From the IMG/VR virus record IMGVR_UViG_2740892042_000003: a stretch of 61,816 nucleotides of DNA; one strand, written 5' to 3'. The position numbers were made by a program, and so were the translations under genes. Under the pieces are notes generated by a model. The model was not told where the DNA came from. It was given only the letters and a program-made list of their open reading frames with translations, and ran no database searches. Below, in pieces: positions 3,429-60,605 of the stretch. Numbering within the stretch: the first letter of the stretch is position 1; each line of letters begins with the position of its first letter. The stretch comes from a virus. Lineage: Duplodnaviria > Heunggongvirae > Uroviricota > Caudoviricetes.

Positions 3429-4210
3429 GCAGCCACCTTCTGTTCAGAGGCTTTCTGTTTCAGGAATCCAAGAGCTTTCATTGCTTCGGCCTGTGTCAGT
3501 TCTGACGATGCGCGAATGTCGCGGCGAAATATCTGGGAACAGAGCGGCAATAAGTCGTCATCCCATGTTTTGTCCAGGGCAATCAGCATAGTGTTAATCT
3601 CCTGCATGGTTTCATCGTTAACCGGAGTGATGTCGCGTTCCGGCTGACGTTCTGCAGTGTATGCGGTATTTTCGACAATGCGCTCGGCTTCATCCTTGTC
3701 ATAGATACCAGCAAATCCGAAGGCCAGACGGGCACACTGAATCATGGCTTTATGCCGTAACATCCGTTTGGGATGCGACTGCCACGGCCCCGTGATTTCT
3801 CTGCCTTCGCGGGTTTTGAATGGTTCGCGGCGGCATTCATCCATCCACTCGGTAACGCAGATCGGATGATTGCGGTCCTTGCGGTAAATCCGGCATGTGC
3901 AGGATTCATTGTCCTGCTCAAAGTCCATACCATCAAACTGCTGGTTTTCATTGATGATGCGGGACCAGCCATCAACGCCCACCACCGGAACGATGCCGTT
4001 CTGCTTATCAGGGAAGGCGTAAATTTCTTTCGTCCACGGATTAAGGCCGTACTGGTTGGCGACGATCAACAATGCGATGAACTGCGCATCGCTGGCATCA
4101 CCTTTAAATGCCGTCTGGCGAAGAGTGGTGATCAGTTCCTGTGGGTCGACAGAATCCATGCCGACACGTTCAGCCAGCTTCCCTGCCAGCGTTGCGAGTG
4201 CTGTACTCAT
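3425..4210 (-). CDS. bet: Red beta single-strand annealing protein
   Basis: 261 aa, near-identical to lambda Bet; 4-nt overlap with exo. Confidence 0.95.
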
Positions 4211-4215
4211 CCGTT

Positions 4216-4512
4216 TTATACCTCTGAATCAATATCAACCTGGTGGCGGGCAATAGTTTCAACCATGTACCGGATGTGTTCTGCCATGCGTTCCTGAAAC
4301 TCAACATCGTCATCAAACGCACGGGTAATGGCTTTTTTGCTGGCCCCGTGGCGTTGCAAATGATCGATGCATAGCGATTCAAACAGGTGCTGGGGCAGGC
4401 CTTTTTCCATGTCGTCTGCCAGTTCTGCCTCTTTCTCTTCACGGGCGATCTGCTGGTAGTGACGCGCCCAGCTCTGAGCCTCAAGACGATCCTGAATGTA
4501 ATAAGCGTTCAT
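4216..4512 (-). CDS. gam: Gam (RecBCD inhibitor), short form
   Basis: 98 aa matching the C-terminal 98 residues of lambda Gam ([21 protein letters not shown]...). Confidence 0.9.
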
Positions 4513-4587
4513 GGCTGAACTCCTGAAAATGGCTGTGAAAATATCGCCCGCGAAATGCCTGGCTGATTAGGAAAACAGGAAAGGGGA

Positions 4588-4830
4588 TTAGTGATTCAGG
4601 CCGTTACCGCGTCCGTCGAGAAAAACTTCTACGAGCAAATCACGGGTATAAGTGCGCTCGATGCCGCGATGCAGATAAAGCCGTCCGCGTAAATTAGCTG
4701 ATGCAGTCCAGGTACCATCTTTGTGTTTGACCAGCATTCCTGGCATGACCGCACCTCGATTAACGGTCTGCGTTCCGTAATGTTGATGAACCATAAAAAA
4801 CTCCTGCCCGTAAGCTGGGCTGCTGAACAT
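4588..4830 (-). CDS. hypothetical protein in kil position
   Basis: 80-aa ORF directly downstream of gam on the same strand; identity not recognised. Confidence 0.4.
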
Positions 4831-5240
4831 ATTGAGACTTCTGCGCGTATTCAGGCGGTGGATGGCCGCCGGTTGTCATAACTAAGTCGCCTCGTTGAAG
4901 CGACTGAGGTATGAAGTGTTGAGTTGATTTCAGCTGGTCATACCGACGTTCACGCGTCCGCTTCACCCCTCGCACTCCCCGGAGCCTGCTGAAATTCAAG
5001 CTGCGGATCTAAGCGGTCATCGCAACGGTGAATCAGGTGGTTGCCGTATCGTTGTGTTGTTGCGATATGGTGATAATAGCTATTGCTATTGGTGATATCA
5101 ATACTTATCGCTATTGGCTGATGTGTTTTGATATTAAATGTTTGATAGCAAAAAGAATTAATTTTGTGACTTGCATCGCATAGCGATAACTGAAGCGGGG
5201 GTTATGGTGGTTTTTCGAACGGTTTGTGTGATGAGGGGGA

Positions 5241-5270
5241 GGCAAAAGAAAACCCGGCACGGTGGCCGGG
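5241..5270 (-). terminator. rho-independent terminator ending the repressor operon
   Basis: 6-bp GC stem cccggc/gccggg (5253-5270) with adjacent A-run on plus strand (U-tract on minus) immediately 3' of the 310-aa ORF. Confidence 0.55.
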
Positions 5271-5278
5271 TAGCATCA

Positions 5279-6211
5279 CTATTCGATTTTTTTAACCATG
5301 TAGTTACGTCGTGATGTTCCTAATCTTTCATTGTGAATCTCAGAAACGCTTACTACGAGCGATATTCGTTCACCAACTTTATATTTACTTTGAATTTCTC
5401 CTAACATATCAATCGGATAAGAAGCCTTTATTTTTCCAAGCTCGCTTGCAATCTCCAATTTCCCGTACATGGATAAAATAGCAAGTTCGCCTGATATATG
5501 CTCATCCGGTAGCTGAATGACCTTCGTTAAAGCTAAGCGAGCATTCAGTTTTTTTATATCTTCTGAAGAAATTGACACTTGTCTGGTACCATCACTTAAA
5601 GGTCCAATCCAAGTAAGATCAAAGTTAAGACTATATTTTTCGCACTCATTTATGATGTTTTTTAGGTTAGCTGTTGATTGCGAACCAATTTCGGCAATTT
5701 TAGCCGTGAATGTTTCTTCATCAATGGATGAGAGTAGTGCAAAAATCTCCTTAACAGCATGACTGGATACTGTTTCGATGAGCTCGCAAGAACCAGTAGA
5801 AAAAGTAACACCTAACTTCGTCGAACCTGGACGCAAGTCTGCCAATCTCATGTCTAATGATTTTTTAACATCAATCGGCACACGACTAGAATCTTTCCCA
5901 GATCCAAGTCGGTAAACTGCTTTCTGTACAAGGGATGCGAGATTACCTGAAATTACAGATAGAATATCTAACGGAATAGACCCGAAATCGACCAAAACAC
6001 CTTTTAATCTCAACTCCATGAAATCACGTAAAGGATGTTGGTTATCGATTGCACGTTGTCTCTCTCGGAGATCGCTCAGATGGGAGTCAAGTGATCTAAA
6101 TATAATGTCATCAGCAAATGATCTCCCCTTATTTTGAGCAAGCAGATCCACATCGCGTTGAATGAACGCAATTCGCTCCTTGAGGGAGTTGAATGTTTTT
6201 TCTTCGCTCAT
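5279..6211 (-). CDS. hypothetical 310-aa protein, distal gene of repressor-linked two-gene operon
   Basis: long ORF, no recognised domain; start ATG overlaps stop of upstream ORF (ATGA); followed by terminator. Confidence 0.7.
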   Translation of the reverse strand: MSEEKTFNSLKERIAFIQRDVDLLAQNKGRSFADDIIFRSLDSHLSDLRERQRAIDNQHPLRDFMELRLKGVLVDFGSIPLDILSVISGNLASLVQKAVYRLGSGKDSSRVPIDVKKSLDMRLADLRPGSTKLGVTFSTGSCELIETVSSHAVKEIFALLSSIDEETFTAKIAEIGSQSTANLKNIINECEKYSLNFDLTWIGPLSDGTRQVSISSEDIKKLNARLALTKVIQLPDEHISGELAILSMYGKLEIASELGKIKASYPIDMLGEIQSKYKVGERISLVVSVSEIHNERLGTSRRNYMVKKIE

Positions 6212-6681
6212 AACATTACCCTCACGAGGCCTTTAGGATTCTCCTTCCGATCAAAACCAAACCACCCTCTCCAGTAACTTCGCCTTTCACTATAATCGAT
6301 TTCTGGATGATTTTCAGGCAGCAAAAGAACGTCAATGCTGTAGTTTTCTTTAATAAAATCTCTATTTAACAATGAGCTAACCAATGGCATCAGCGTGTTT
6401 GGCAAAGAGTTTAGGGCCAAATAATCGACGACCACGAGTATATCTATGTCATCAGGTTCAGGTTTCTCTGTAGTGAATGAACCATCGATCCACACTTCAG
6501 AGAAACATAGACACTGCTGATTAACAAGTTTAAATTGCTCAATAAGCTGTATAAAATTACAGTATAGCATACTTCTTCTAACGGATTTTGGGAAGGTGTC
6601 GACACAAAGAGACTTGATGCCATCACTATCCATATCATGAAATCCTGCTGTAAGAAGAGGTGGGAAGCTAGGCTTTTCCAT
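6208..6681 (-). CDS. minimal nucleotidyltransferase-like protein (Pol-beta superfamily motif)
   Basis: 157 aa with WIDGSF...PEPDDIDILVVVD...YSIDVLLL, fitting the GS-x(n)-DhD plus third acidic strand pattern of MNT/SMODS-type NTases; AAGGA RBS upstream; 81 bp downstream of repressor. Confidence 0.7.
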   Translation of the reverse strand: MEKPSFPPLLTAGFHDMDSDGIKSLCVDTFPKSVRRSMLYCNFIQLIEQFKLVNQQCLCFSEVWIDGSFTTEKPEPDDIDILVVVDYLALNSLPNTLMPLVSSLLNRDFIKENYSIDVLLLPENHPEIDYSERRSYWRGWFGFDRKENPKGLVRVML

Positions 6682-6762
6682 CCTAAGTCCTTGTTTATGC
6701 CATATAGCGTTCTATTTAATATTCTTGAAAAGAGTGTGCCTTAAAAAGCTACAGGCTAATTA

Positions 6763-7491
6763 TTAACCATGCTTCCTGTACGTCTGCGGCATGCTCCCAA
6801 TAACCTTACCGAAGATGAACACCCGGTTCATCTCGTCTTTCTCGATCGGGTCCCACGGTGAGTAGCTCTTGTTATCAGAGATAACCAGTAGCTTATCTTT
6901 CATCATTTGCAGGCGCTTTACATGGGCTGTGTCGTCGTACAGAAACGCATAGATACCATCACCGTCGAAAGATTTAACCGTGATATCAACGAACAGCAGA
7001 TCACCTGGTTCGATCGTTCCTGACATGCTGTCACCACGCACGTTAATGATGCGGATATTTTCCGCCTTCCTGCCATCGAACATGTGACGAGCATCGTCAA
7101 ACGAGTACTCAACCGAGCGTAGAACTTCTACAAACTCACGGTTGATTACACCCGGCCCGGCACTGACTTCTATATCAAGAACGTCAATTTTGAAGTATTT
7201 GGAATGGCTGACAGCAGGCTTCCCTGATTGTTGACCGTCATTTCTCATCGGGCCTATGCCTGATGAGAGCCATTCTGTTCGAACACCCAATGCATTAGCT
7301 ATTTCAACAATTTTTGTTGAGCCGCGCGCGTTGCCGCTTGTCAGTCTCCAGATTGTGGGTTGAGCTACGCCAGACGCCTTTGCAAGAGCGCCTTGAGACA
7401 TTCCAGATTGTTCCATCGCTAGGTTTAAGCGATCAGCAAGAGTTTCTTTTTTCATAAGTTTTAATTTATACGCTTGCGTATTGATGGTCAA
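6763..7491 (-). CDS. CI-type repressor (HTH plus S24 LexA-like autopeptidase)
   Basis: N-terminal HTH (MSQGALAKASGVAQPTIWRL), C-terminal GDSMSGTIEPGD with downstream KRL; divergent from cro-like gene; start may be internal ATG at 7455. Confidence 0.85.
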   Translation of the reverse strand: MTINTQAYKLKLMKKETLADRLNLAMEQSGMSQGALAKASGVAQPTIWRLTSGNARGSTKIVEIANALGVRTEWLSSGIGPMRNDGQQSGKPAVSHSKYFKIDVLDIEVSAGPGVINREFVEVLRSVEYSFDDARHMFDGRKAENIRIINVRGDSMSGTIEPGDLLFVDITVKSFDGDGIYAFLYDDTAHVKRLQMMKDKLLVISDNKSYSPWDPIEKDEMNRVFIFGKVIGSMPQTYRKHG

Positions 7492-49110: not shown

Positions 49111-52100
49111 ATGGGTAAAGGCAGCAGTAAGGGGCATACCCCGCGCGAAGCGAAGGACAACCTGAAATCCACGCAATTACTGAGTGTGATCGATGCCATC
49201 AGCGAAGGGCCGATTGAAGGTCCGGTGGATGGATTAAAAAGCGTGCTGCTGAACAGTACACCGGTGCTGGACAGTGAGGGGAATACCAACATCTCCGGTG
49301 TTACGGTGGTGTTCCGGGCAGGTGAGCAGGAGCAGACACCGCCGGAGGGATTTGAATCCTCCGGTTCCGAGACGGTGCTGGGTACGGAAGTGAAATACGA
49401 CACGCCGATCACCCGGACCATCACGTCTGCAAACATCGACCGTCTGCGCTTTACCTTCGGTGTGCAGGCACTGGTGGAAACCACCTCAAAGGGTGACAGG
49501 AATCCGTCGGAAGTCCGCCTGCTGGTTCAGATACAACGTAACGGTGGCTGGGTGACGGAAAAAGACATCACCATTAAGGGCAAAACCACCTCGCAGTATC
49601 TGGCCTCGGTGGTGGTGGGTAACCTGCCGCCGCGCCCGTTTAATATCCGGATGCGCAGGATGACGCCGGACAGCACCACAGACCAGCTGCAGAACAAAAC
49701 GCTCTGGTCGTCATACACTGAAATCATCGATGTGAAACAGTGCTACCCGAACACGGCACTGGTCGGCGTGCAGGTGGACTCGGAACAGTTCGGCAGCCAG
49801 CAGGTGAGCCGTAATTATCATCTTCGCGGGCGCATTCTGCAGGTGCCATCGAACTATAACCCGCAGACGCGGCAATACAGCGGTATCTGGGACGGGACGT
49901 TTAAACCGGCATACAGCAACAACATGGCCTGGTGTCTGTGGGATATGCTGACCCACCCGCGCTACGGCATGGGGAAACGTCTTGGTGCGGCGGATGTGGA
50001 CAAATGGGCGCTGTATGTCATCGGCCAGTATTGCGATCAGTCAGTGCCGGATGGCTTTGGTGGCACGGAGCCGCGCATCACCTGTAACGCTTACCTGACC
50101 ACACAGCGTAAGGCGTGGGATGTGCTCAGTGATTTCTGTTCGGCGATGCGCTGTATGCCGGTATGGAACGGGCAGACGCTGACGTTCGTGCAGGACCGAC
50201 CGTCGGATAAGGTGTGGACCTATAACCGCAGTAATGTGGTGATGCCGGATGATGGCGCGCCGTTCCGCTACAGCTTCAGCGCCCTGAAGGACCGCCATAA
50301 TGCCGTTGAGGTGAACTGGATTGACCCGAACAACGGCTGGGAGACGGCGACAGAGCTTGTTGAAGATACGCAGGCCATTGTCCGTTACGGTCGTAATGTC
50401 ACGAAGATGGATGCCTTTGGCTGTACCAGCCGGGGGCAGGCACACCGCGCCGGGCTGTGGCTGATTAAAACTGAACTGCTGGAGACGCAGACCGTGGACT
50501 TCAGCGTGGGTGCCGAAGGGCTTCGCCATGTACCGGGCGATGTCATTGAAATCTGTGATGATGACTATGCCGGTATCAGCATCGGTGGTCGCGTGCTGGC
50601 GGTGAACAGCCAGACCCGGACGCTGACGCTCGACCGTGAAATCACGCTGCCATCCTCCGGCACCACGCTGATAAGCCTGGTTGACGGAAGTGGCAATCCG
50701 GTCAGCGTGGAGGTTCAGTCCGTCACCGACGGCGTGAAGGTAAAAGTGAACCGGGTTCCTGACGGTGTTGCCGAATACAGCGTATGGGGGCTGAAGCTGC
50801 CGACGCTGCGCCAGCGCCTGTTCCGCTGTGTGAGTATCCGTGAGAACGATGACGGCACGTATGCCATCACTGCCGTGCAGCATGTGCCGGAGAAAGAAGC
50901 CATCGTGGATAACGGGGCGCACTTTGACGGCGACCAGAGCGGAACGGTGAACGGTGTCACGCCGCCAGCAGTGCAGCACCTGACCGCAGAAGTCACCGCA
51001 GACAGCGGGGAATACCAGGTGCTGGCGCGCTGGGATACGCCGAAGGTGGTGAAGGGGGTGAGCTTTATGCTTCGCCTGACCGTGGCAGCGGATGACGGCA
51101 GTGAGCGGCTGGTCAGCACGGCCCGGACGACGGAAACCACATACCGCTTCAGGCAACTGGCGCTGGGAAACTACAGACTGACGGTCCGGGCGGCAAATGC
51201 CTGGGGGCAGCAGGGCGATCCGGCGTCGGTATCGTTCCGGATTGCCGCACCGGCAGCACCGTCGCAGATTGAGCTGACGCCGGGCTATTTTCAGATAACC
51301 GCCACGCCGCATCTTGCCGTTTATGATCCGACGGTACAGTTTGAGTTCTGGTTCTCGGAAAAGCGGATTGCGGATATCAGGCAGGTTGAAACCACAGCCA
51401 GCTATCTTGGCACGGCGCTGTACTGGATAGCTGCCAGTATCAATATTAAGCCGGGTCATGATTATTATTTTTACGTTCGCAGTGTGAACACCGTTGGCAA
51501 ATCGGCATTCGTGGAGGCTGTCGGTCGGGCGAGCGATGATGCGGAAGGTTACCTGGATTTTTTCAAAGGCCAGATAACCGAATCCCATCTCGGCAAGGAG
51601 CTGCTGGAAAAAGTCGAGCTGACGGAGGATAACGCCAGCAAACTGGAGGAGTTTTCGAAAGAGTGGAAAGACGCCAACGATAAATGGAATGCCATGTGGG
51701 GCGTCAAAATTGAGCAGACCGAAGACGGCAGGCATTATGTCGCGGGGCTTGGCCTCAGCATGGAGGATACAGAGGAAGGCAAACTGAGCCAGTTCCTGGT
51801 TGCCGCTAACCGTATCGCGTTTATTGACCCGGCAAACGGGAATGAAACGCCGATGTTTGTGGCGCAGGGCAACCAGATATTCATGAACGACGTGTTCCTG
51901 AAGTATCTGACGGCTCCCACCATTACCAGCGGCGGCAATCCTCCGGTATTTTCCCTGACACCGGACGGGCGGCTGACGGCGAAAAATGCCGATATCAGCG
52001 GTAACGTGAATGCGAACTCCGGGACGCTCAACAACGTCACGGTAAATGAAAACTGTACGATTAAGGGCATGCTGGAGGCGAACCAGGTCAGAGGTGACTT

Positions 52101-52524
52101 CGTTAAAACTGTATCCAAACCATTTCCGAAAAAGGCTGGTACGTGGGGTAACACGGAAACACCAAACGGGACGGTTACAGTCACCATCAGTGATGATCAT
52201 AACTTTGACCGTCAAATCATTATTCCGCCCATTATCTTTAACGGAATAGCGTATAGCGATCCGGGAAGTGGTAATAACCCGGGAGGTACAAGATACACGG
52301 GTTATGGTTTTGAAGTTCGCAAAAACGGTGTATTAATCGCATCCAGAGAAACTAAAGGGGCCATTCCCGGTAGCTACAGTGCGGTTATTGATATGCCGAG
52401 TGGCAGGGGAAGCGTCACTCTGGAGTTTAAGATTTTCCAGAAAGGCAATCAGTGGGCAGGTAATATCACCGATTGTACGGTGATTGTGACCAAAAAAGCC
52501 GCTTCCGGCATCAGTATTCGTTGA
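49111..52524 (+). CDS. J: central tail fibre / host specificity protein J
   Basis: 1137 aa matching lambda gpJ over most of its length. Confidence 0.95.
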
Positions 52525-52593
52525 AATTGTTATAACCCATATAAGGGCACCAGAAATGGTGCCTTTTTTATTGCAGAAAAGCGAGAGGTAATT

Positions 52594-53193
52594 ATGCGTA
52601 AACTTTATGCCGCCATTTTTTCCGCAGCCATCTGTCTGGCCGTATCCGGTGCGCCTGCATGGGCATCTGAACATCAGTCCACGCTGAGCGCGGGGTATCT
52701 TCATGCCTCGACGAACGTTCCCGGCAGCGATGATCTTAACGGGATTAACGTGAAATACCGTTATGAGTTTACGGACACACTGGGGCTGGTGACGTCATTC
52801 AGCTATGCAGGAGACAAGAATCGCCAGCTTACCCGTTACAGCGATACCCGCTGGCATGAAGATTCCGTGCGTAACCGCTGGTTCAGCGTGATGGCGGGGC
52901 CGTCTGTGCGCGTGAATGAATGGTTCAGTGCTTATGCGATGGCGGGTGTGGCTTACAGCCGTGTTTCGACGTTCTCCGGGGATTATCTCCGCGTAACTGA
53001 CAACAAGGGGAAAACGCACGATGTGCTGACCGGAAGTGATGACGGTCGCCACAGCGACACGTCTCTGGCGTGGGGAGCTGGCGTGCAGTTTAACCCGACC
53101 GAATCCGTGGCCATTGATATTGCTTATGAAGGTTCCGGCAGTGGCGACTGGCGTACTGACGGTTTCATCGTGGGTGTCGGTTATAAATTCTGA
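52594..53193 (+). CDS. lom: outer membrane protein Lom (Ail/Lom family)
   Basis: 199 aa with signal peptide and beta-barrel, C-terminal F; matches lambda Lom. Confidence 0.9.
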
Positions 53194-53257
53194 TTAGCCA
53201 GGTAACACAGTGTTATTACAGCCCGCCGGTTCAGGCGGGCTTTTTTGTGGAGTGGAT

Positions 53258-55615
53258 ATGGCAGCAGTAAAAATCTCAGGTGTGCTGAAAGATGGTGCGG
53301 GAAAACCAATACAGAACTGCACTATTCAACTGAAGGCAAAGCGTAACAGCACCACGGTACTGGTGAACACGGTGGCCTCTGAAAATCCGGATGAAGCCGG
53401 GCGTTACAGCATGGATGTTGAGTATGGCCAGTACAGCGTCACCCTGCTGGTTGAAGGTTTTCCGCCTTCACATGCCGGGATCATTACCGTCTATGAAGGT
53501 TCCAGACCCGGTACGCTGAATGATTTTCTCGGTGCCATGACGGAAGATGACGTCATGCCGGAGGCATTGCGTCGTTTTGAGGCAATGGTGGAAGAAGCGG
53601 CACGCAACGCCGAAGCCGCCTCTCAGAGCGCAGCGGCGGCAAAGAAATCCGAAACGGCTGCGGCATCATCGAAGAACGCGGCGAAAACCTCAGAAACGAA
53701 TGCAGCTAACAGCGCACAGGCGGCAGCGGCCTCGCAGACTGCATCGGCAAACTCCGCGACAGCAGCCAAAAAATCAGAAACCAACGCGAAAAATAGCGAG
53801 ACAGCCGCAAAGACGAGCGAAACCAACGCAAAGTCCAGCCAGACGGCAGCGAAAACCAGCGAAACGAATGCCAAAGCCAGTGAAACTGCGGCGAAAAATA
53901 GCCAGAATGCAGCAGCCGAAAGCGAGAGTGCGGCAGCTGGTTCTGCGACTTCAGCAGCTGGATCAGCAACTGCTGCGGCTAACAGCCAGAAAGCAGCGAA
54001 GACGAGCGAAACTAACGCAAAGTCCAGCCAGACGGCAGCGAAGACCAGCGAAACGAATGCCAAAGCCAGCGAAACTGCGGCGAAAAGCAGTCAGGATGCA
54101 GCAGCTGAAAGCGAGAGTGCCGCAGCTGGTTCTGCAACAGCGGCAGCTAATAGCCAAAAAGCTGCAAAAACCAGTGAAACTAACGCAAAGACGAGTGAAA
54201 CAAAAGCAGCAGCTAGCGAGACAGAAGCAACGTCAGCCGCAACAAGAGCAGAGAATGCAGCCCGGATTGCAGAAGATGCCGCTGATCCTGCTTCTGTCCC
54301 TCCGCTTCCTGATATCTGGCTACCCTTGAATGATTCTCTGGAAGCGATAACAGGGTATGCCCCGGGCTATAAAACAATAACCATCGGCAGTGATGAAATA
54401 ACAATGCCTGTTAATGGCATATGCCAATTTAGCCGGGCTTCATCTGCAACGTATATTGATAAGTCCGGGCATATTACCGTGGCAGGGAATAACGTTCCTC
54501 GTTTTGAAAAATATGGTTTGCTGATAGAGAATCAGCGAACAAACATGTTCGTAAATAGTTTTAATCCTGATGCCTGGAATAAAAGCGGTGGTATATCTGT
54601 AACATCATCAACAGATGAATTTGAGTTTAAATATGGACGTTTCACGGTAGGAAGCGATATAGCAGGAACGACAACAGGGAGAAATATATGCACAGTTGCT
54701 GGTAACAAAGGCATAGATGTGACTGGCGATGATCAGTACAGTAAAGGTCCGTATGTTACCGCGTCGTTCAGGGTAAGAAGTGATCTCAATGTTCGCGCAC
54801 GTATCCGTTTTGAACGGTATAACTCGGAAGGATACACCTTCCTTTGCGACGCCTATTTGTCATTACAGACCCATGAACTACAAATTACTGGTGGCAATGC
54901 CCAGCTATTAACAGCAAACTTTGAAATCGATCCTGGTAGTGGATGGATATACTTTCAGGCAACACTGAAATGTCTGCCAGAATGGGGAATGGTTGGTACG
55001 CAGCTGCAAATTGCAGCCGACAGAGCTGTGGGGTCTTTTGCAACAGGTGACTGGATAGAAGTAACCACCCCGCAATTCGAGTATGGTGCTTGTGCAACTT
55101 CCTTCATCATAACGACAACAGAGCCAGCGACTCGTGCATCAGATTTATGTAAATTTCCGCTGATGAAAAATATGTATACCATGCCTTTTACGTTCATGGT
55201 GGAAGTCCATAAAAACTGGTTTATTTCTCATAATGCTGCACCGCGTGTCATTGATTCAGAAAATCACCAGTCCGGAGGCCCATTTATTATGGGGTTTGGT
55301 TCTTCTGGAACTATTAGTCAGGACGGTTATTCGTATTGCGATATAGGCGGGGCTAACCGACGTGTATATGAATCATGCGGAGTAAGGGATCTCGTTATGG
55401 GATTCAGGGTTAAGGCTGACGGCATGACATGCTCATTTGCAAATAAGCATATAAGCACTGAAACAAAAACAGTATGGAAATATATTCGTGAAGCAGCCGT
55501 GATTCGTATCGGGGGGCAAACGACGACAGGATTACGACACCTTAATGGTCATATAAAAAACCTCCGTTTCTGGAACAGAGCATTGTCAGATACGCAGCTT
55601 AAGGAATACGTATAA
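53258..55615 (+). CDS. stf: side tail fibre protein Stf
   Basis: N-terminus MAAVKISGVLKDGAGKPIQNCTIQLKA... as lambda Stf; long tandem-repeat region; divergent C-terminal domain. Confidence 0.85.
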   Translation: MAAVKISGVLKDGAGKPIQNCTIQLKAKRNSTTVLVNTVASENPDEAGRYSMDVEYGQYSVTLLVEGFPPSHAGIITVYEGSRPGTLNDFLGAMTEDDVMPEALRRFEAMVEEAARNAEAASQSAAAAKKSETAAASSKNAAKTSETNAANSAQAAAASQTASANSATAAKKSETNAKNSETAAKTSETNAKSSQTAAKTSETNAKASETAAKNSQNAAAESESAAAGSATSAAGSATAAANSQKAAKTSETNAKSSQTAAKTSETNAKASETAAKSSQDAAAESESAAAGSATAAANSQKAAKTSETNAKTSETKAAASETEATSAATRAENAARIAEDAADPASVPPLPDIWLPLNDSLEAITGYAPGYKTITIGSDEITMPVNGICQFSRASSATYIDKSGHITVAGNNVPRFEKYGLLIENQRTNMFVNSFNPDAWNKSGGISVTSSTDEFEFKYGRFTVGSDIAGTTTGRNICTVAGNKGIDVTGDDQYSKGPYVTASFRVRSDLNVRARIRFERYNSEGYTFLCDAYLSLQTHELQITGGNAQLLTANFEIDPGSGWIYFQATLKCLPEWGMVGTQLQIAADRAVGSFATGDWIEVTTPQFEYGACATSFIITTTEPATRASDLCKFPLMKNMYTMPFTFMVEVHKNWFISHNAAPRVIDSENHQSGGPFIMGFGSSGTISQDGYSYCDIGGANRRVYESCGVRDLVMGFRVKADGMTCSFANKHISTETKTVWKYIREAAVIRIGGQTTTGLRHLNGHIKNLRFWNRALSDTQLKEYV
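53620..54240 (+). repeat. tandem in-frame repeats within stf
   Basis: repeated units encoding KTSETNAKxSxTAAK and AAESESAAAGSATAAANSQKAAKTSETNAK; one approximately 200-bp unit is duplicated. Confidence 0.65.
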
Positions 55616-55884
55616 TGCGGGATATAACATTACGATTCGATAACAGAGAACAGTTTAACGCAATTGTATATGACAGTGGCCTGTTCAGTCTTGAAGAAGA
55701 AAACGGGGTTCTTGTTGATGTTATTGGCTGCATTATCGATTACGAGGAGCCAGAAAACGAAAGATGTACAGGCATTGATCGCGGTGGTTTTTTCGTAAAC
55801 ATGAGGATTGTTGATAGCAGTAAAAACATATCTTCTTTAATGCCTTTCATTACGACAGATCAGCATGTAAGGACATGGGCTTAA
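55615..55884 (+). CDS. hypothetical protein
   Basis: 89-aa ORF overlapping stf stop (TAATG). Confidence 0.35.
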   Translation: MRDITLRFDNREQFNAIVYDSGLFSLEEENGVLVDVIGCIIDYEEPENERCTGIDRGGFFVNMRIVDSSKNISSLMPFITTDQHVRTWA

Positions 55885-55896
55885 TGGAGTAAGACA

Positions 55897-56937
55897 ATGG
55901 TTACAAAAACAGTAATTCCTGATGACATCAAAACGCTAAAATCCGATGTTAGTAAACTAAAAACTGATCAAGGAAGCTATGCAACAAAATCATATGTAGA
56001 CAATAAAACAACATGGAATAGTTATTGCAATGTAATCTATGATCAAAAGGCATTGCCGACCACTGGAACTATATTTAGCGGTAAGATTCACTTGTCAAAT
56101 AAGGCAGGAGAAACCGAAAACGCTTATAGCGAGATGTACACCAGAAAAAATATTGACGGCACTAAAGATACAATGACAAGGATTGTCACACACAACGGAA
56201 CAAAAGGTATCTTCTGGGATTTTAGCGATCTTTACGGTGGGACATTGATTTTCCCAGGAAATGAAGGTTACTTAAAAATGGGTAAGTGCCTCATGTCTTA
56301 TGGGAATCGTGTTGATAACGCCATTATTAAATTTGATTACACAGACACATTACAAATCAAATACGCTAATCATGGGTCAACCATGACATTAAACACACAG
56401 GGAACCGCTCACGCTGGCGTAACAACTAGACTATGGGGTAGTTCTAGCCGTCCGGTTGTTTATGAAGTTGGCGTAGATGAGGCTCTGTATATGTTCTACG
56501 CACAGAAAACTACCAGCAATACCTACGAATTAACGGTTAACGGCGCGTGCAATGCAAGTGCATTTAATCAAGGCTCTGACCGGGATCTGAAAGACAATAT
56601 TCAGGTGATCGATAATGCAACCGACCGCATTCGTAAAATGAACGGCTATACATACACGCTTAAAGAAAACGGTATGCCTTACGCTGGTGTTATTGCACAA
56701 GAAACCCTGGAAGCCATCCCCGAAGCCGTAGGGGCTATGATGAAATATCCAGACGGCGGGAGTGGATTAGATGGAGAAGAAGGTGAACGGTATTACACTG
56801 TAGATTATTCTGGTGTTACTGGCTTGCTTGTTCAGGTAGCCAGAGAGTCAGACGACAGGATAACAGCACTGGAAGAAGAAAACGCAGAATTAAGACAAAG
56901 ATTATCTGCAATTGAGGCGGTGCTTGCGTCTAAATAA
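55897..56937 (+). CDS. tail fibre protein with C-terminal intramolecular chaperone (peptidase S74-like) domain
   Basis: C-terminal SDRDLKDNIQ...YTYTLKENG...AGVIAQE...LEEENAELRQRL pattern of self-cleaving fibre chaperone domains. Confidence 0.7.
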   Translation: MVTKTVIPDDIKTLKSDVSKLKTDQGSYATKSYVDNKTTWNSYCNVIYDQKALPTTGTIFSGKIHLSNKAGETENAYSEMYTRKNIDGTKDTMTRIVTHNGTKGIFWDFSDLYGGTLIFPGNEGYLKMGKCLMSYGNRVDNAIIKFDYTDTLQIKYANHGSTMTLNTQGTAHAGVTTRLWGSSSRPVVYEVGVDEALYMFYAQKTTSNTYELTVNGACNASAFNQGSDRDLKDNIQVIDNATDRIRKMNGYTYTLKENGMPYAGVIAQETLEAIPEAVGAMMKYPDGGSGLDGEEGERYYTVDYSGVTGLLVQVARESDDRITALEEENAELRQRLSAIEAVLASK

Positions 56938-56964
56938 TATTAAGGGGCCGAGCGCCCCATTTTA

Positions 56965-57273
56965 TTGGGTAGGATGAAAATGGATATAACACCTTTCCTT
57001 CATGCACTTTGTGCTGTGGCTGCGCAGCTACTGATTGGTCTTTTTACCGGGAACTGGGCTTACGGAGCGATAGCCGGTTGTACGTTCTTCATTGCGCGTG
57101 AACACACCCAGGCAGAATATCGCTGGATCGAAATGTTCGGGCATGGCAAGCGAATGAATATGCCGTGGTGGGGCGGTTTTGATACACGTGCATGGGATGT
57201 GGCAAGCCTGATGGATTTTGCTGTGCCGGTGGTGGCGTGTCTGCTGGTCTGGCTGTTGGTTAATCGTGGGTGA
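56965..57273 (+). CDS. hypothetical membrane protein
   Basis: 102-aa ORF with two hydrophobic segments. Confidence 0.35.
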   Translation: MGRMKMDITPFLHALCAVAAQLLIGLFTGNWAYGAIAGCTFFIAREHTQAEYRWIEMFGHGKRMNMPWWGGFDTRAWDVASLMDFAVPVVACLLVWLLVNRG

Positions 57274-57949
57274 AAAAAGGTGAGCTGTATATGCAACGGA
57301 GGAAGAAACCCCGTTGCTGGAAGCCTGGAAAAAGTATCGGATGCTGCTAAACCGTGTGGACACTTCCGTAGCACCAGATATCGAGTGGCTTATTCAACCA
57401 TAATAAACAGTATGTATATCATAGGTTATTAATTGTGAGTTTTTTCGGTGTGTTATTTGTTTGTTTGATGTTATGCTTTTGCGCCCCAAAAGGTTGTTTA
57501 GATGTATTTTATCAATTGATTTTCAATATCGTTTAATAAAGAAAAATTAAGCAAGCTGGATGTTGGTTTTTTGTTAATTGAATGGTTCTAATAATGTTTT
57601 TTTACTGTTGTTGAATGTGACTTGATAAGAAATGCAAGTAAAAATGATACTCTTTTTATTTTAAATTCAAACGGTTGACATATATATAGCAAGAGGTTTC
57701 AGGTGCGTTGTAGTGAGTTTATGTTAATAAAAAGCATAGTAATCGTTGAAAAAATGTAACTTTGAAATACGTTAGAATAAAAAACAATATACATATAATA
57801 ATTTAATCTTAAATGAAATTTATTAAAATTTGCAAACTATAATTTTGTGTATAAAAATATAAATGCACATCATCCTGATTATGATTGTGTATTTAATTGG
57901 TTGTTATTTGACTACTATCAACTTGTTTTAATTTTATGATAGGTGCAAG

Positions 57950-58699
57950 ATGGATTATGTTTGCTCCGTAGTTTTCATCTGTCAATCATTTGATTTAATT
58001 ATAAACAGGAGAGTTATCTCGTTCAAAAAAAATTCATTGTTTATTGTAAGCGACAAAATTAGAAGAGAGTTACCAGTATGCCCCTATAAACTAAGAATTG
58101 TTGATATAGATAAGAAAACATGTTTATCCTTTTTTATCGACGTGAATAATGAGTTGCCTGGCAAATTTACTCTTGATAAGAATGGCTATATTGCTGAAGA
58201 GGAACCTCCATTATCGCTTGTTTTTTCTCTGTTTGAAGGGATTAAAATAGCAGACTCACACTCCCTTTGGTTAAAAGAAAGACTATGTATATCCTTACTT
58301 GCCATGTTCAAAAAACGCGAAAGTGTAAATTCATTTATACTAACAAATATAAATACATTTACCTGTAAAATTACTGGAATAATCAGTTTTAATATTGAGC
58401 GGCAATGGCATTTAAAAGATATTGCGGAATTGATTTATACGAGTGAAAGTTTAATAAAAAAAAGATTAAGGGATGAAGGAACGTCATTTACTGAAATATT
58501 GAGAGATACTAGGATGAGGTATGCAAAAAAACTCATAACTTCAAACTCTTATTCTATCAATGTCGTAGCCCAGAAATGTGGCTATAACAGTACTTCATAT
58601 TTCATATGTGCATTTAAAGATTATTATGGTGTCACGCCATCTCATTATTTTGAGAAAATAATCGGCGTCACAGATGGAATAAACAAAACAATTGACTGA
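57950..58699 (+). CDS. appY: AraC-family regulator AppY
   Basis: 249 aa matching E. coli AppY; AT-rich upstream region. Confidence 0.9.
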
Positions 58700-58948: not shown

Positions 58949-59902
58949 TTAAAATGTGTACTTAAGACCAGCAGTAGTGATGAAGTTATAGTTTTCTATG
59001 CCTGCTCCATTTTTGCTGTAGTCTGAAGTGTTATTATTGTGATCATAAAGTGAAGTATTACCTTTTTTATTCGTAACCCGATTCCATGCGCCTTCAACAT
59101 AAACTTTTGCGTTAGGTGTGACGTAATAACCTGCATTGACTGCAACAGAATAGTAATTTTGGTCTTTGACCTTACTGCGATAAGTGATTCTTTTTCCCGG
59201 GTCATAGTGTTCATCGTTATCAGATGATTCCACCCAGCCGCTGTATTTAAATGTGCCACCTAGCTCAAAATCTTCATAACGATAACTTCCAGTCAAGCCA
59301 ATGTAGGGCATTTTAAAACGTTGTTTGTAGCCGATTGCTCTTTCTCCATTCGGGAAGGAGCCGATATCATCTCTGAATCCCTCCTCAGAACTGTAGATAT
59401 AGGAACCACCTCTGGCTGTAAAGCTATAACGGCTTTCCTGATATCCGGCCATGAGTCCCAGGCGGTAATTGGGTTCGTTGAGGAGCCAGCCTTTGATATT
59501 CAGATCAAATTCGTTGGCATAATTGAGTTGTGTATCAGGATGTCTACTTTCATCCGTCCAGGTTCCGGGGTTACTGGAATCCATCCAGTCCTGATCGACC
59601 ATATTGCCACCTCGGCTGCCGAGTGTTGTCCAGCCAGCAGCCCCGATAGATATCTGAGGCATCAAATCCCAATTAATTGCACCTTTAATAATTGCAGCGT
59701 TATTGAATTTCCAGTCAAGTTGACTGACTTTTCGGCTTCCTTCTTCGGCTAGATAAACACGCTCTTTTGTTTTTCCGCTCAGAGTTCCAAGACTAATGTC
59801 CGCATTTATGTTGTCAGGAGTAAACGATAAAGTCTCGGTAGAAGCAAAAGAGTTGATCGCAATAGGGGTTGTCAGGACTATTCCCAGAAGTTTCGCCCGC
59901 AT
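58949..59902 (-). CDS. ompT: outer membrane protease OmpT (omptin)
   Basis: 317 aa matching E. coli OmpT. Confidence 0.95.
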   Translation of the reverse strand: MRAKLLGIVLTTPIAINSFASTETLSFTPDNINADISLGTLSGKTKERVYLAEEGSRKVSQLDWKFNNAAIIKGAINWDLMPQISIGAAGWTTLGSRGGNMVDQDWMDSSNPGTWTDESRHPDTQLNYANEFDLNIKGWLLNEPNYRLGLMAGYQESRYSFTARGGSYIYSSEEGFRDDIGSFPNGERAIGYKQRFKMPYIGLTGSYRYEDFELGGTFKYSGWVESSDNDEHYDPGKRITYRSKVKDQNYYSVAVNAGYYVTPNAKVYVEGAWNRVTNKKGNTSLYDHNNNTSDYSKNGAGIENYNFITTAGLKYTF

Positions 59903-60446
59903 AAAAGTTCTCCATTCAATCGTTTTAATGATTGAATATGTATTTTTTATATCTAACTTAATGAGTCAATTACATATTGCTCCACTGTTTATATTTTGTT
60001 TAGTATTGAATGATTATCACAATGCGCTATCTGTTTTTGGTTTAATTATCTGTTATTGTTTCATATTGCGGTTTTACTGTGTGGTTTTTTTATGATTTTG
60101 TGGTGCTTTTATCTATTTAAGTGCCATGCCTTTAGAGGCATATAAGCGAAAATAGCATGAGGTTTATCCTCAATTACTATGTTTTTTAGTACAAAAAAGA
60201 GGGACAAAACTGAGACACATAAGGCCTCACAAAGGTCTGCAAGGCCTCACATGTATTGAGATGTTAATAAAATGTAGGCTTGTAATTTTGATATAAATGG
60301 TAGATAAAACCTTTCCCCAAAATAAAAACGAACGTCAATGAAATCAAACGGTTGAATAAAGTTGATTTTGGCTAATAAAAAGACAATAAAATAATTTTTA
60401 TCATTAAATATCAATGAATTGAACTTAATGTTTTTATATACTGCTG

Positions 60447-60605
60447 CGCCATATGGGCTGGACTGAAGCCGCAGACCTGATTGTTAAAGGTATGGAAGGC
60501 GCAATCAATGCGAAGACCGTAACCTATGACTTCGAACGTCTGATGGAAGGCGCTAAGCTGCTGAAATGTTCAGAGTTTGGCGATGCGATCATCAAGAACA
60601 TGTAA
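60447..60605 (+). pseudogene. icd: 3' fragment of isocitrate dehydrogenase gene icd
   Basis: encodes (M)[49 protein letters not shown], the last 52 codons of Icd, with no upstream icd body. Confidence 0.7.

Follow-up and report, generated by a model that had tools for sequence, protein, structure and literature searches.

A lambdoid prophage of Escherichia coli carries further fibre-like coding sequence after its side tail fibre gene, stf, and this raises the question of whether the locus encodes two separate receptor-binding fibres or the parts of one. The prophage is contained in a window of 61,816 nucleotides (IMG/VR record IMGVR_UViG_2740892042_000003; by the window we mean this whole stretch of DNA), a piece of E. 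coli chromosome that matches strain 582 (NZ_CP120568) at 100% identity. A first-pass annotation of positions 53258 to 56937 had described two receptor-binding fibres, i.e., a repeat-expanded Stf and a 346-residue protein ending in an S74-type chaperone domain. That two-gene account omitted orf89, a small gene lying between stf and orf346. Our analysis leads us to favour, with moderate confidence, a reading in which stf, orf89 and orf346 are one operon and their products make up one composite, branched side tail fibre that has two candidate sites for binding glycans.

Three Adjoining Genes at the Fibre Locus

The genes in question, and the hairpin that follows them, are:

53258..55615, + strand: stf, proximal side tail fibre, 785 aa (RefSeq WP_001516233.1; full-length match to phrog_1419)
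55615..55884, + strand: orf89, small acidic protein of 89 aa, pI 4.4 (full-length match to phrog_1361)
55897..56937, + strand: orf346, distal fibre subunit with a C-terminal intramolecular chaperone, 346 aa (full-length match to phrog_4563)
56944..56958, + strand: G+C-rich hairpin, weak and terminator-like, after orf346

The start of stf is the ATG at 53258, as in the RefSeq call; a GTG at 53210 falls within the lom terminator hairpin and is not the annotated start. The ATG of orf89 overlaps the stop codon of stf (TAATG), and orf346, which is preceded by a GGAG Shine-Dalgarno sequence, starts 12 nt after orf89. Because of this overlap and this short spacer, and because the first hairpin is found only after orf346, the three genes look like one translationally coupled operon. 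The encoded Stf is 98-99% identical to that of the isolated phages PhiR11_1 and PhiR55_1.

The Cassette Recurs on Different Phage Backbones

The conserved unit is the C-terminal part of stf together with orf89 and orf346. We examined 15 loci with the Stf C-terminal module, drawn from lambdoid phages, Drexlerviridae, Queuovirinae, T5-like phages and rV5-like phages. A gene of the ORF89 family directly followed the Stf-module homologue in all 15, and in 13 of them the next open reading frame (ORF) had both a start of the form M[VAT]T.T.I[PQ].DI..LK and a Ser-x4-Lys chaperone motif. The exceptions were Lambda_2E9, without a third fibre gene, and CarlMeissner, with a different gene at that place. 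All three genes occurred in lambdoid, T1-like, 9g-like and T5-like phages, and one rV5-like phage had the first two only. A single polypeptide of ChristophMerian joins a Stf-like stalk to an ORF346-like module behind it, which shows that this module functions as the distal end of a lateral fibre.

Near-identical cassettes were found in isolated phages with complete genomes and named hosts (PhiR11_1, PhiR55_1, PhiR47_1, Tritos and JenP1), and orf346 was intact, at 80% identity, in JenP1, a lytic phage. The N-terminus of stf was matched in 4823 of 5426 complete E. coli genomes; coverage of 80% or more was reached in only 131 of the 5426 for this stf and in only 75 for the entire cassette. Distal fibres behind this proximal fibre or a related one were of 346 aa (68-95% identity) or 227 aa, or were missing altogether, and one cluster of ORF346 homologues had more than 2000 member sequences. 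The cassette is ordinary: it is widespread among E. coli prophages and among lytic coliphages of several families, and its architecture has already been described for lytic relatives; a literature search returned nothing specific on this cassette in lambdoid phages or on the source of the PhiR phages.

T5-like phages of the IrisVonRoten/AKFV33 type have these three genes in the same order. At the IrisVonRoten (BASEL Bas32) locus they are gp22 (lateral tail fibre, 796 aa), gp23 (92 aa) and gp24 (574 aa). Stf aa 131-785 and Gp22 were 45% identical over a 743-column alignment covering the whole C-terminal module, and both have an A/S/T-rich repeat shaft; ORF89 and Gp23 were 33% identical (E = 9e-13); and ORF346 and Gp24 shared 12 of 17 N-terminal residues, with ORF346 aa 29-336 aligning with the T5-like receptor-binding domain (RBD) named RBD2 and with the chaperone part of Gp24. 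AKFV33, which Golomidova et al. (2016; PMC4728585) list as a T5-like phage with a pair of ltf genes, carries an ORF89 homologue (orf136) and a distal fibre with an ORF346-type N-terminus (orf135). Three sequence features of this type of cassette were found here, i.e., a module of about 430 aa with a centre resembling lectins or carbohydrate-binding modules (CBMs), an adjoining ORF89-family gene, and a distal fibre with M-x-T-x-T-x-I-P-x-D-I-x-x-L-K at its start and an S74 domain. Maffei et al. (2021; PMC8594841) note that a lateral fibre in these siphoviruses can be a single polypeptide or be assembled from two or more proteins. In an AlphaFold-Multimer model, IrisVonRoten Gp24 attaches to the proximal fibre Gp22, the C-terminus of which has a protruding "galectin-like" domain, put forward as a further RBD (Humolli et al., PLoS Biol 2025; PMC11990801).

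The present cassette differs from the IrisVonRoten type in several respects. The attachment domain of Stf is of lambda type (PF08400) rather than of the T5 pb1/LtfA type that works with LtfC, the backbone is a temperate lambdoid prophage, and the lambdoid cassette is followed by orf97 and a tfa remnant. ORF346 lacks the Gp12-like RBD1 of Gp24 and so would not be "T-shaped."

Domain Organization of Stf

The following regions were distinguished in Stf:

53258..53653, + strand: aa 1-132, lambda-type tail-attachment domain (PF08400, PDB 9e7m)
53600..54292, + strand: aa ~115-345, heptad-periodic shaft (composition, autocorrelation, Tandem Repeats Finder)
54293..54556, + strand: aa 346-433, conserved start of the ~430-aa module, with a PLPDIW... 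motif (mean top-residue frequency 0.87)
54557..55090, + strand: aa 434-611, variable beta-sandwich, CBM-like, candidate glycan-binding site (AlphaFold2, NCBIfam)
55091..55612, + strand: aa 612-785, conserved end of the module (top-residue frequency 0.86; AlphaFold2 pLDDT below 50)

The lambda-type N-terminus noted earlier was confirmed by a match of aa 3-132 to PF08400 (E = 2.5e-66; 222 bits against a cut-off of 26.6) and by an identity of ~87% between aa 3-95 and the lambda Stf N-terminus in PDB 9e7m (phmmer, E = 4.4e-48). The shaft that follows is composed of 36% Ala, 17% Ser, 13% Thr, 10% Lys and 9% Glu, and its self-similarity in autocorrelation peaks at multiples of 7 residues, with a maximum at a lag of 63, far beyond chance. 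At the DNA level, Tandem Repeats Finder reported a 189-bp unit repeated 1.8 times at 91% identity (score 591; 53795-54135), with nested periods of 42 and 21 bp over 53758-54208. An in-frame tandem array placed at 53620-54240 is therefore real, and is bracketed by the region defined at the protein level. The description of Stf as repeat-expanded did not survive the comparison with lambda, because the shaft of lambda orf-401 (aa ~115-390) has the same composition and heptad periodicity and is longer, although more degenerate. Long ORFs also cover the array in another forward frame (53547-54329) and on the opposite strand (53623-54063, 53706-53969 and 53963-54157); we regard them as by-products of repetitive, GC-skewed sequence. 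One such antisense ORF is listed by RefSeq as a "hypothetical protein" in CFT073 (locus 4866-5306).

Beyond the shaft, Stf aa 346-785 showed no similarity to lambda Stf in a comparison with orf-401 that did not include orf-314, the C-terminal part of lambda Stf; against orf-401, then, the C-terminus is non-lambda, as had been claimed. Nor is this a lambda/T4 gp37-like C-terminal region folded by a separate Tfa, since tfa is represented only by a pseudogene of 37 codons. The ~430-aa module was found in 214 phage records, from lambdoid phages, Drexlerviridae, Dhillonvirus, Queuovirinae, T5-like phages and rV5-like myoviruses. Among 21 homologues its central domain was the most variable part, with a mean top-residue frequency of 0.68 versus 0.86-0.87 for the flanks. 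The AlphaFold2 monomer of the Stf C-terminus was confident only for this centre (aa 434-611), a beta-sandwich, and the NCBIfam "GTA head spike fiber" domain (GTA_spike_fiber) matched aa 422-627 with 47.9 bits against a cut-off of 36. The modelled fold resembles carbohydrate-binding modules, making aa 434-611 a candidate glycan-binding site. Several phage records labelled as Campylobacter or Listeria phages (for example C13, C12, A142 and LM 4-11-1) carry T5-like or rV5-like coliphage fibre genes and are probably mislabelled or contaminant.

ORF346 Has a Conserved Anchor, a Variable Middle Part and an S74 Chaperone

Three parts were recognized in ORF346:

55897..55947, + strand: aa 1-17, MVTKTVIPDDIKTLKSD, N-terminal anchor motif, common to distal fibres in four phage backbones
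56017..56574, + strand: aa 41-226, variable beta-rich receptor-binding part, aligning with the T5-like RBD2 of IrisVonRoten Gp24
56575..56934, + strand: aa 227-346, Peptidase_S74 intramolecular chaperone with a predicted autocleavage site at Ser227/Lys232 (PF13884, PDB 6f45)

The S74-type chaperone attributed to this protein was borne out by a match of aa 227-278 to PF13884 (Peptidase_S74; 52 bits against a cut-off of 22) and by the Ser227-x4-Lys232 motif, which was invariant in one alignment of homologues and nearly invariant in a second. We take Ser227 and Lys232 to be the counterpart of the catalytic dyad of endoNF and T5 pb1. A fibre-like N-terminus, the presence of which had been set in advance as a check on this ORF, was also found, in the form of the conserved anchor and a short predicted helix or coiled coil. 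Searches of Pfam and NCBIfam revealed no PF08400 or other tail-attachment domain in ORF346.

The anchor and chaperone stay conserved among homologues, while the middle part ranges from 23 to 92% identity; in the homologue P0101, for example, identity to ORF346 was 0.82 in the anchor, 0.23 in the RBD and 0.67 in the chaperone. At the nucleotide level, the match to PhiR55_1 ends at about codon 15 of orf346 and that to PhiR47_1 at about codon 36. Beyond codon ~15, PhiR55_1 encodes an alternative distal fibre of 227 aa with the same N-terminus. Short distal fibres of 227-245 aa occur in PeterMerian (locus 4087-4782), tunus (4096-4833) and PhiR55_1 (5698-6381). They keep the anchor and an S74-like chaperone, and about 105-120 mature residues would remain; such fibres may bind a receptor themselves or may merely cap the hub.

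Structure prediction, which had been proposed for both C-terminal domains, succeeded for one of them: Stf aa 434-611 was modelled with confidence, but the AlphaFold2 monomer of ORF346, built from an alignment of 28 sequences, was poor (mean pLDDT 58), and Foldseek found no match for it in the PDB at E ≤ 0.001. An uninformative monomer model is what would be expected for an intertwined trimer.

ORF89 Accompanies the Stf Module

The ORF89 family is acidic (pI 4.0-4.5 throughout) and shows 13 invariant positions among eight diverse members, and its homologues in T5-like and 9g-like phages, found by tblastn, always adjoin a fibre gene. In the present locus orf89 occupies the position of tfa. Profile searches of Pfam, NCBIfam, PADLOC and the PDB gave no match. 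A phmmer search of 1.84 billion representative proteins gave six, mostly fragments or frameshifted read-through of the same locus; two of the six were weak matches to Ig-like/cadherin repeat proteins (E = 1e-6 to 1e-7), which are at most a faint hint that ORF89 might adopt a beta-sandwich fold. The family has no described function, and the papers cited here do not discuss that of the homologous Gp23. Fusions of Stf with ORF89 were sought among homologues with longer C-termini (P0193 and P0198), which proved to contain insertions and no fusions.

Since ORF89 is present where no distal fibre is encoded (Lambda_2E9), its primary partner appears to be the Stf C-terminal module. It would be a dedicated partner of that module, acting either as an assembly chaperone or as a structural joint. 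A bolder proposal, which we regard as doubtful, is that the Stf module and ORF89 form a universal "socket" that accepts interchangeable distal fibres via a plug of 15-17 residues, and that ORF89 is a joint in the virion, not a transient chaperone. This proposal would span at least five groups, i.e., lambdoid, T1-like, 9g-like, T5-like and rV5-like phages.

One Composite Fibre or Two Fibres

In the composite fibre that we favour, trimers of Stf would attach to the tail tip via the lambda-type N-terminal domain and extend through the heptad-repeat shaft, which is probably helical. The conserved flanks of the ~430-aa module would act as a hub, the central beta-sandwich being the candidate first glycan-binding site, and ORF89 would be made in step with Stf through the overlapping stop and start codons. 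ORF346 would form trimers, assisted by its C-terminal S74 chaperone; the chaperone would then cleave itself off at Ser227, and the mature protein of 226 residues would plug onto the Stf/ORF89 hub via its 17-residue N-terminus, presenting another receptor-binding domain that could be exchanged on its own. Changes of host range would come mainly from recombination that swaps modules at conserved junctions (repeat shaft, N-terminal anchor, chaperone domain and tfa remnant), and repeat slippage would not be the main route. The conserved anchor and chaperone and variable RBD of ORF346, together with the conserved flanks and variable centre of the Stf module, fit such a plug-in design.

The obvious alternative is that Stf and ORF346 are attached to the tail tip independently of each other and serve as adhesins in succession or as alternatives. 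They are indeed separate genes, each with its own candidate receptor-binding domain, and it is well known that a phage can have two receptor-binding proteins that are independent of each other (PMC11990801). However, ORF346 has no recognizable tail-attachment domain, and its anchor is conserved across unrelated tail tips (lambda-like, T1-like, 9g-like and T5-like) among which the only shared neighbours are the Stf module and ORF89; these facts together make the Stf module/ORF89 a plausible docking site. A related module is, moreover, fused to the end of the Stf-like stalk of ChristophMerian. We therefore consider two independent fibres unlikely. What stands of the first-pass annotation is that both components have candidate receptor-binding domains; what does not is their independence, ORF346 being a member of a cassette. 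A different possibility is that ORF346 and its shorter relatives are mainly assembly factors or vestigial genes and not adhesins of the virion. GenBank labels homologues of 231 and 388 aa (PeterMerian and VogelGryff) "putative lateral tail fiber chaperone," and little would be left of the short variants after maturation. Yet an S74 domain is an intramolecular chaperone for its own polypeptide, and upstream of the predicted cleavage site ORF346 has 226 residues, including the variable beta-rich domain that aligns with the T5-like RBD2 of Gp24; the variability of this upstream region follows a pattern typical of receptor-binding domains, and the gene is kept intact in lytic phages such as JenP1. 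An assembly or vestigial role consequently seems to us improbable, more so than a pair of independent fibres.

Sequence analysis establishes which domains are present, the order of the genes, the structure of the operon, the patterns of conservation and the homology to the cassette of IrisVonRoten/AKFV33 type; docking, cleavage, glycan binding and the part played by ORF89 are inferences. Several points weigh against the composite fibre. The monomer models of Stf and ORF346 are poor outside one domain; the published docking (PMC11990801) is itself a prediction, made for a homologue at 24-55% identity. Phages of the Lambda_2E9 type keep the hub and an ORF89 homologue without a distal fibre, so that the hub needs no distal fibre and ORF89 is not solely a distal-fibre adaptor. 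The glycan-binding role is proposed from similarity to the CBM fold at 7-15% sequence identity, and autoproteolytic release of the chaperone at Ser227 is predicted from the Ser-Lys motif.

The Repeat Array as a Probable Site of Module Exchange

The repeat array had been proposed to expand or contract by slippage and thereby to make this a hypervariable host-range locus. Array length proved to be invariant in 63 of 63 close relatives. In the 60 best matches among complete E. coli genomes (97.9-100% identity), stf was exactly 2358 bp long, except in one with an IS2 insertion, and the array was unchanged in length in the isolated phages PhiR11_1, PhiR47_1 and PhiR55_1. The Stf of PhiR11_1 is one residue shorter, the difference being at the extreme N-terminus, outside the array. 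The length of the shaft varied only among diverged alleles: that of Tritos is longer by 7 aa (one heptad), that of Lambda_2E9 is shorter by about 110 residues, and the PLPD[IV]W motif lies anywhere from residue 126 to residue 350 in full-length Stf homologues. The module behind this motif was 428-433 residues long in all homologues but two, which carry insertions. In a spread sample of genomes, many matches covered only nt 1-891 of stf, at 95-97% identity, and then stopped; this endpoint marks a mosaic breakpoint near 54148, within the second repeat copy.

Invariant length, and a shared stretch of 891 nt at the 5' end followed by divergence, suggest that the array is a tract of shared homology for recombination of fibre modules and not a contingency repeat. 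That it might nevertheless be a slippage-prone contingency element, in which frequent changes of copy number alter the length of the fibre and hence host range, is suggested by its being a near-perfect recent duplication (189 bp, 91%) of in-frame 21/42-bp units, by the unequal shafts of the diverged alleles, and by the annotation of CFT073 stf as fragmented around the array. But its units are long and imperfect, not short homopolymeric repeats, its length is the same in the 60 genomes and three phages, and the abrupt divergence after nt 891 in many genomes points to homologous recombination within the array, so that we consider slippage very improbable as the source of variation. The copy-number comparison had been chosen in advance as the test that could refute slippage, and that part of the proposal must be given up; the locus is taken to determine host range and is highly mosaic among relatives, but through exchange of modules.

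In CFT073 (NZ_CP158446.1, locus 3922-6900), stf is annotated in several pieces around the repeats, with IS200C upstream, and in strain VTB96929v it is interrupted by IS2. These two broken genes suggest that, in resident prophages, decay of the fibre genes takes place in the array or close to it.

Relation to Other Fibre Systems

A branched fibre has a genetically supported precedent in LtfA and LtfB of phages DT57C and DT571/2 (PMC4728585; Ayala et al., 2023, PMC10713586). The DT57C type is a functional analogue, in that a proximal fibre with its own receptor-binding domain carries a second fibre protein; its receptors are O-antigens, and its locus, which is genetically unstable, can be reduced to a single gene. 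It differs in that both LtfA and LtfB have C-terminal S74 chaperones, whereas the present Stf has no S74 domain, and in its branching region, where LtfA aa 223-471 and the N-terminus of LtfB resemble phiEco32 gp14/gp15. No branching region of this gp14/gp15-like kind was found here, the comparison being with DT57C and not with phiEco32 itself. DT57C had no homologue of ORF89 (tblastn) or of the Stf C-terminal module (phmmer), and a probe for the N-terminus of the distal fibre matched it only at the generic residues 27-64, within ltfA. The likeness of Stf and ORF346 to DT57C was limited to an A/S/T-rich coil and the common NLSDLADR motif. In a phmmer search, Stf matched PDB 8hqz (a 1076-aa chain of an "L-shaped tail fiber assembly") only in the A/S/T-rich coil; we take this chain to be DT57C LtfA.

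With the Stf and Tfa of lambda (Ur-lambda), the locus has in common the position after J and lom, the ~87% identical N-terminal domain and a heptad, A/S/T-rich shaft of the same type. It differs in that the C-terminal receptor-binding region and the separate Tfa have been replaced, and lambda has no second fibre subunit. ORF346 in turn shares a C-terminal Peptidase_S74 domain with Ser-x4-Lys with fibres of the T5 pb1, K1F endosialidase and S16 gp37 type, and its chaperone has weak sequence similarity to the chaperone region of S16 gp37 (PDB 6f45). Unlike those fibres, it is much shorter (~226 mature residues) and has no virion-attachment domain of its own.

Genomic Setting and Flanking Genes

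The right end of the prophage runs in the order J (49111-52524), lom (52594-53193), stf, three ORFs, the tfa pseudogene, appY, ompT, a 3' fragment of icd, and iraM. The position of stf after J and lom in the late operon is that of a lambda-type Stf, and the duplicated icd 3' fragment indicates that the prophage integrated at the icd attachment site. Other features near the cassette are:

53220..53241, + strand: intrinsic-terminator-like hairpin (8 bp, 7 of them G-C) with a T-run, after lom and directly upstream of stf
56980..57273, + strand: orf97, small hydrophobic protein (full-length match to phrog_1443, function unknown)
57293..57403, + strand: remnant of the 3' end of tfa, 37 codons, just after orf97 (RefSeq pseudogene)

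A second terminator-like hairpin, at 52543-52566, means that lom has hairpins on both sides, as would fit a moron that is expressed autonomously and was inserted, as in lambda, between J and stf.

The 97-aa product of orf97 has apparently three hydrophobic segments, as judged by eye, and gave no match in PADLOC, Pfam or the PDB. In lambdoid phages orf97 ends cassettes with and without a distal fibre gene alike; the lytic-phage versions lack it. Its product is probably not a fibre part, and may be a lysogeny-related moron; a role in defence or exclusion was considered and found no support in PADLOC or the PDB.

The same tfa remnant lies in the CFT073 prophage beside a Pin-type recombinase gene, and in both CFT073 and Tritos a Pin-type invertase gene follows the position corresponding to the remnant, a hint that the fibre segment was ancestrally invertible. 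The remnant looks like the scar of an stf-tfa module displaced by the cassette. Together with the breakpoint in the repeat shaft, it suggests that recombination put the cassette in place of an ancestral stf-tfa distal region.

Between the cassette and the icd 3' fragment (60438-60605) lie appY (57950-58699, + strand) and ompT (58949-59902, - strand), which in this strain appear to be cargo of the icd-integrated lambdoid prophage. In K-12, appY and ompT stand at the end of the DLP12 remnant.

Discussion

A composite fibre at this locus would come as no surprise to phage specialists, since modular, multi-protein lateral fibres are already known in T5-like phages and small siphoviruses, and exchange of modules is usual for tail fibre loci. 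The role of the ORF89 family, which accompanies the hub module in every locus examined, is a small and well-defined question, and if the "socket" proposal were true, ORF89 would represent a new class of fibre-branching adaptor.

For annotation, the consequence is that the "tail fiber domain-containing protein" and the "hypothetical protein" that follow stf in many E. coli prophages should be read with stf as one adhesin. The conserved junctions, i.e., the repeat shaft, the 17-residue anchor and the S74 domain, would offer natural splice points at which receptor-binding modules could be placed on lambda-derived particles.

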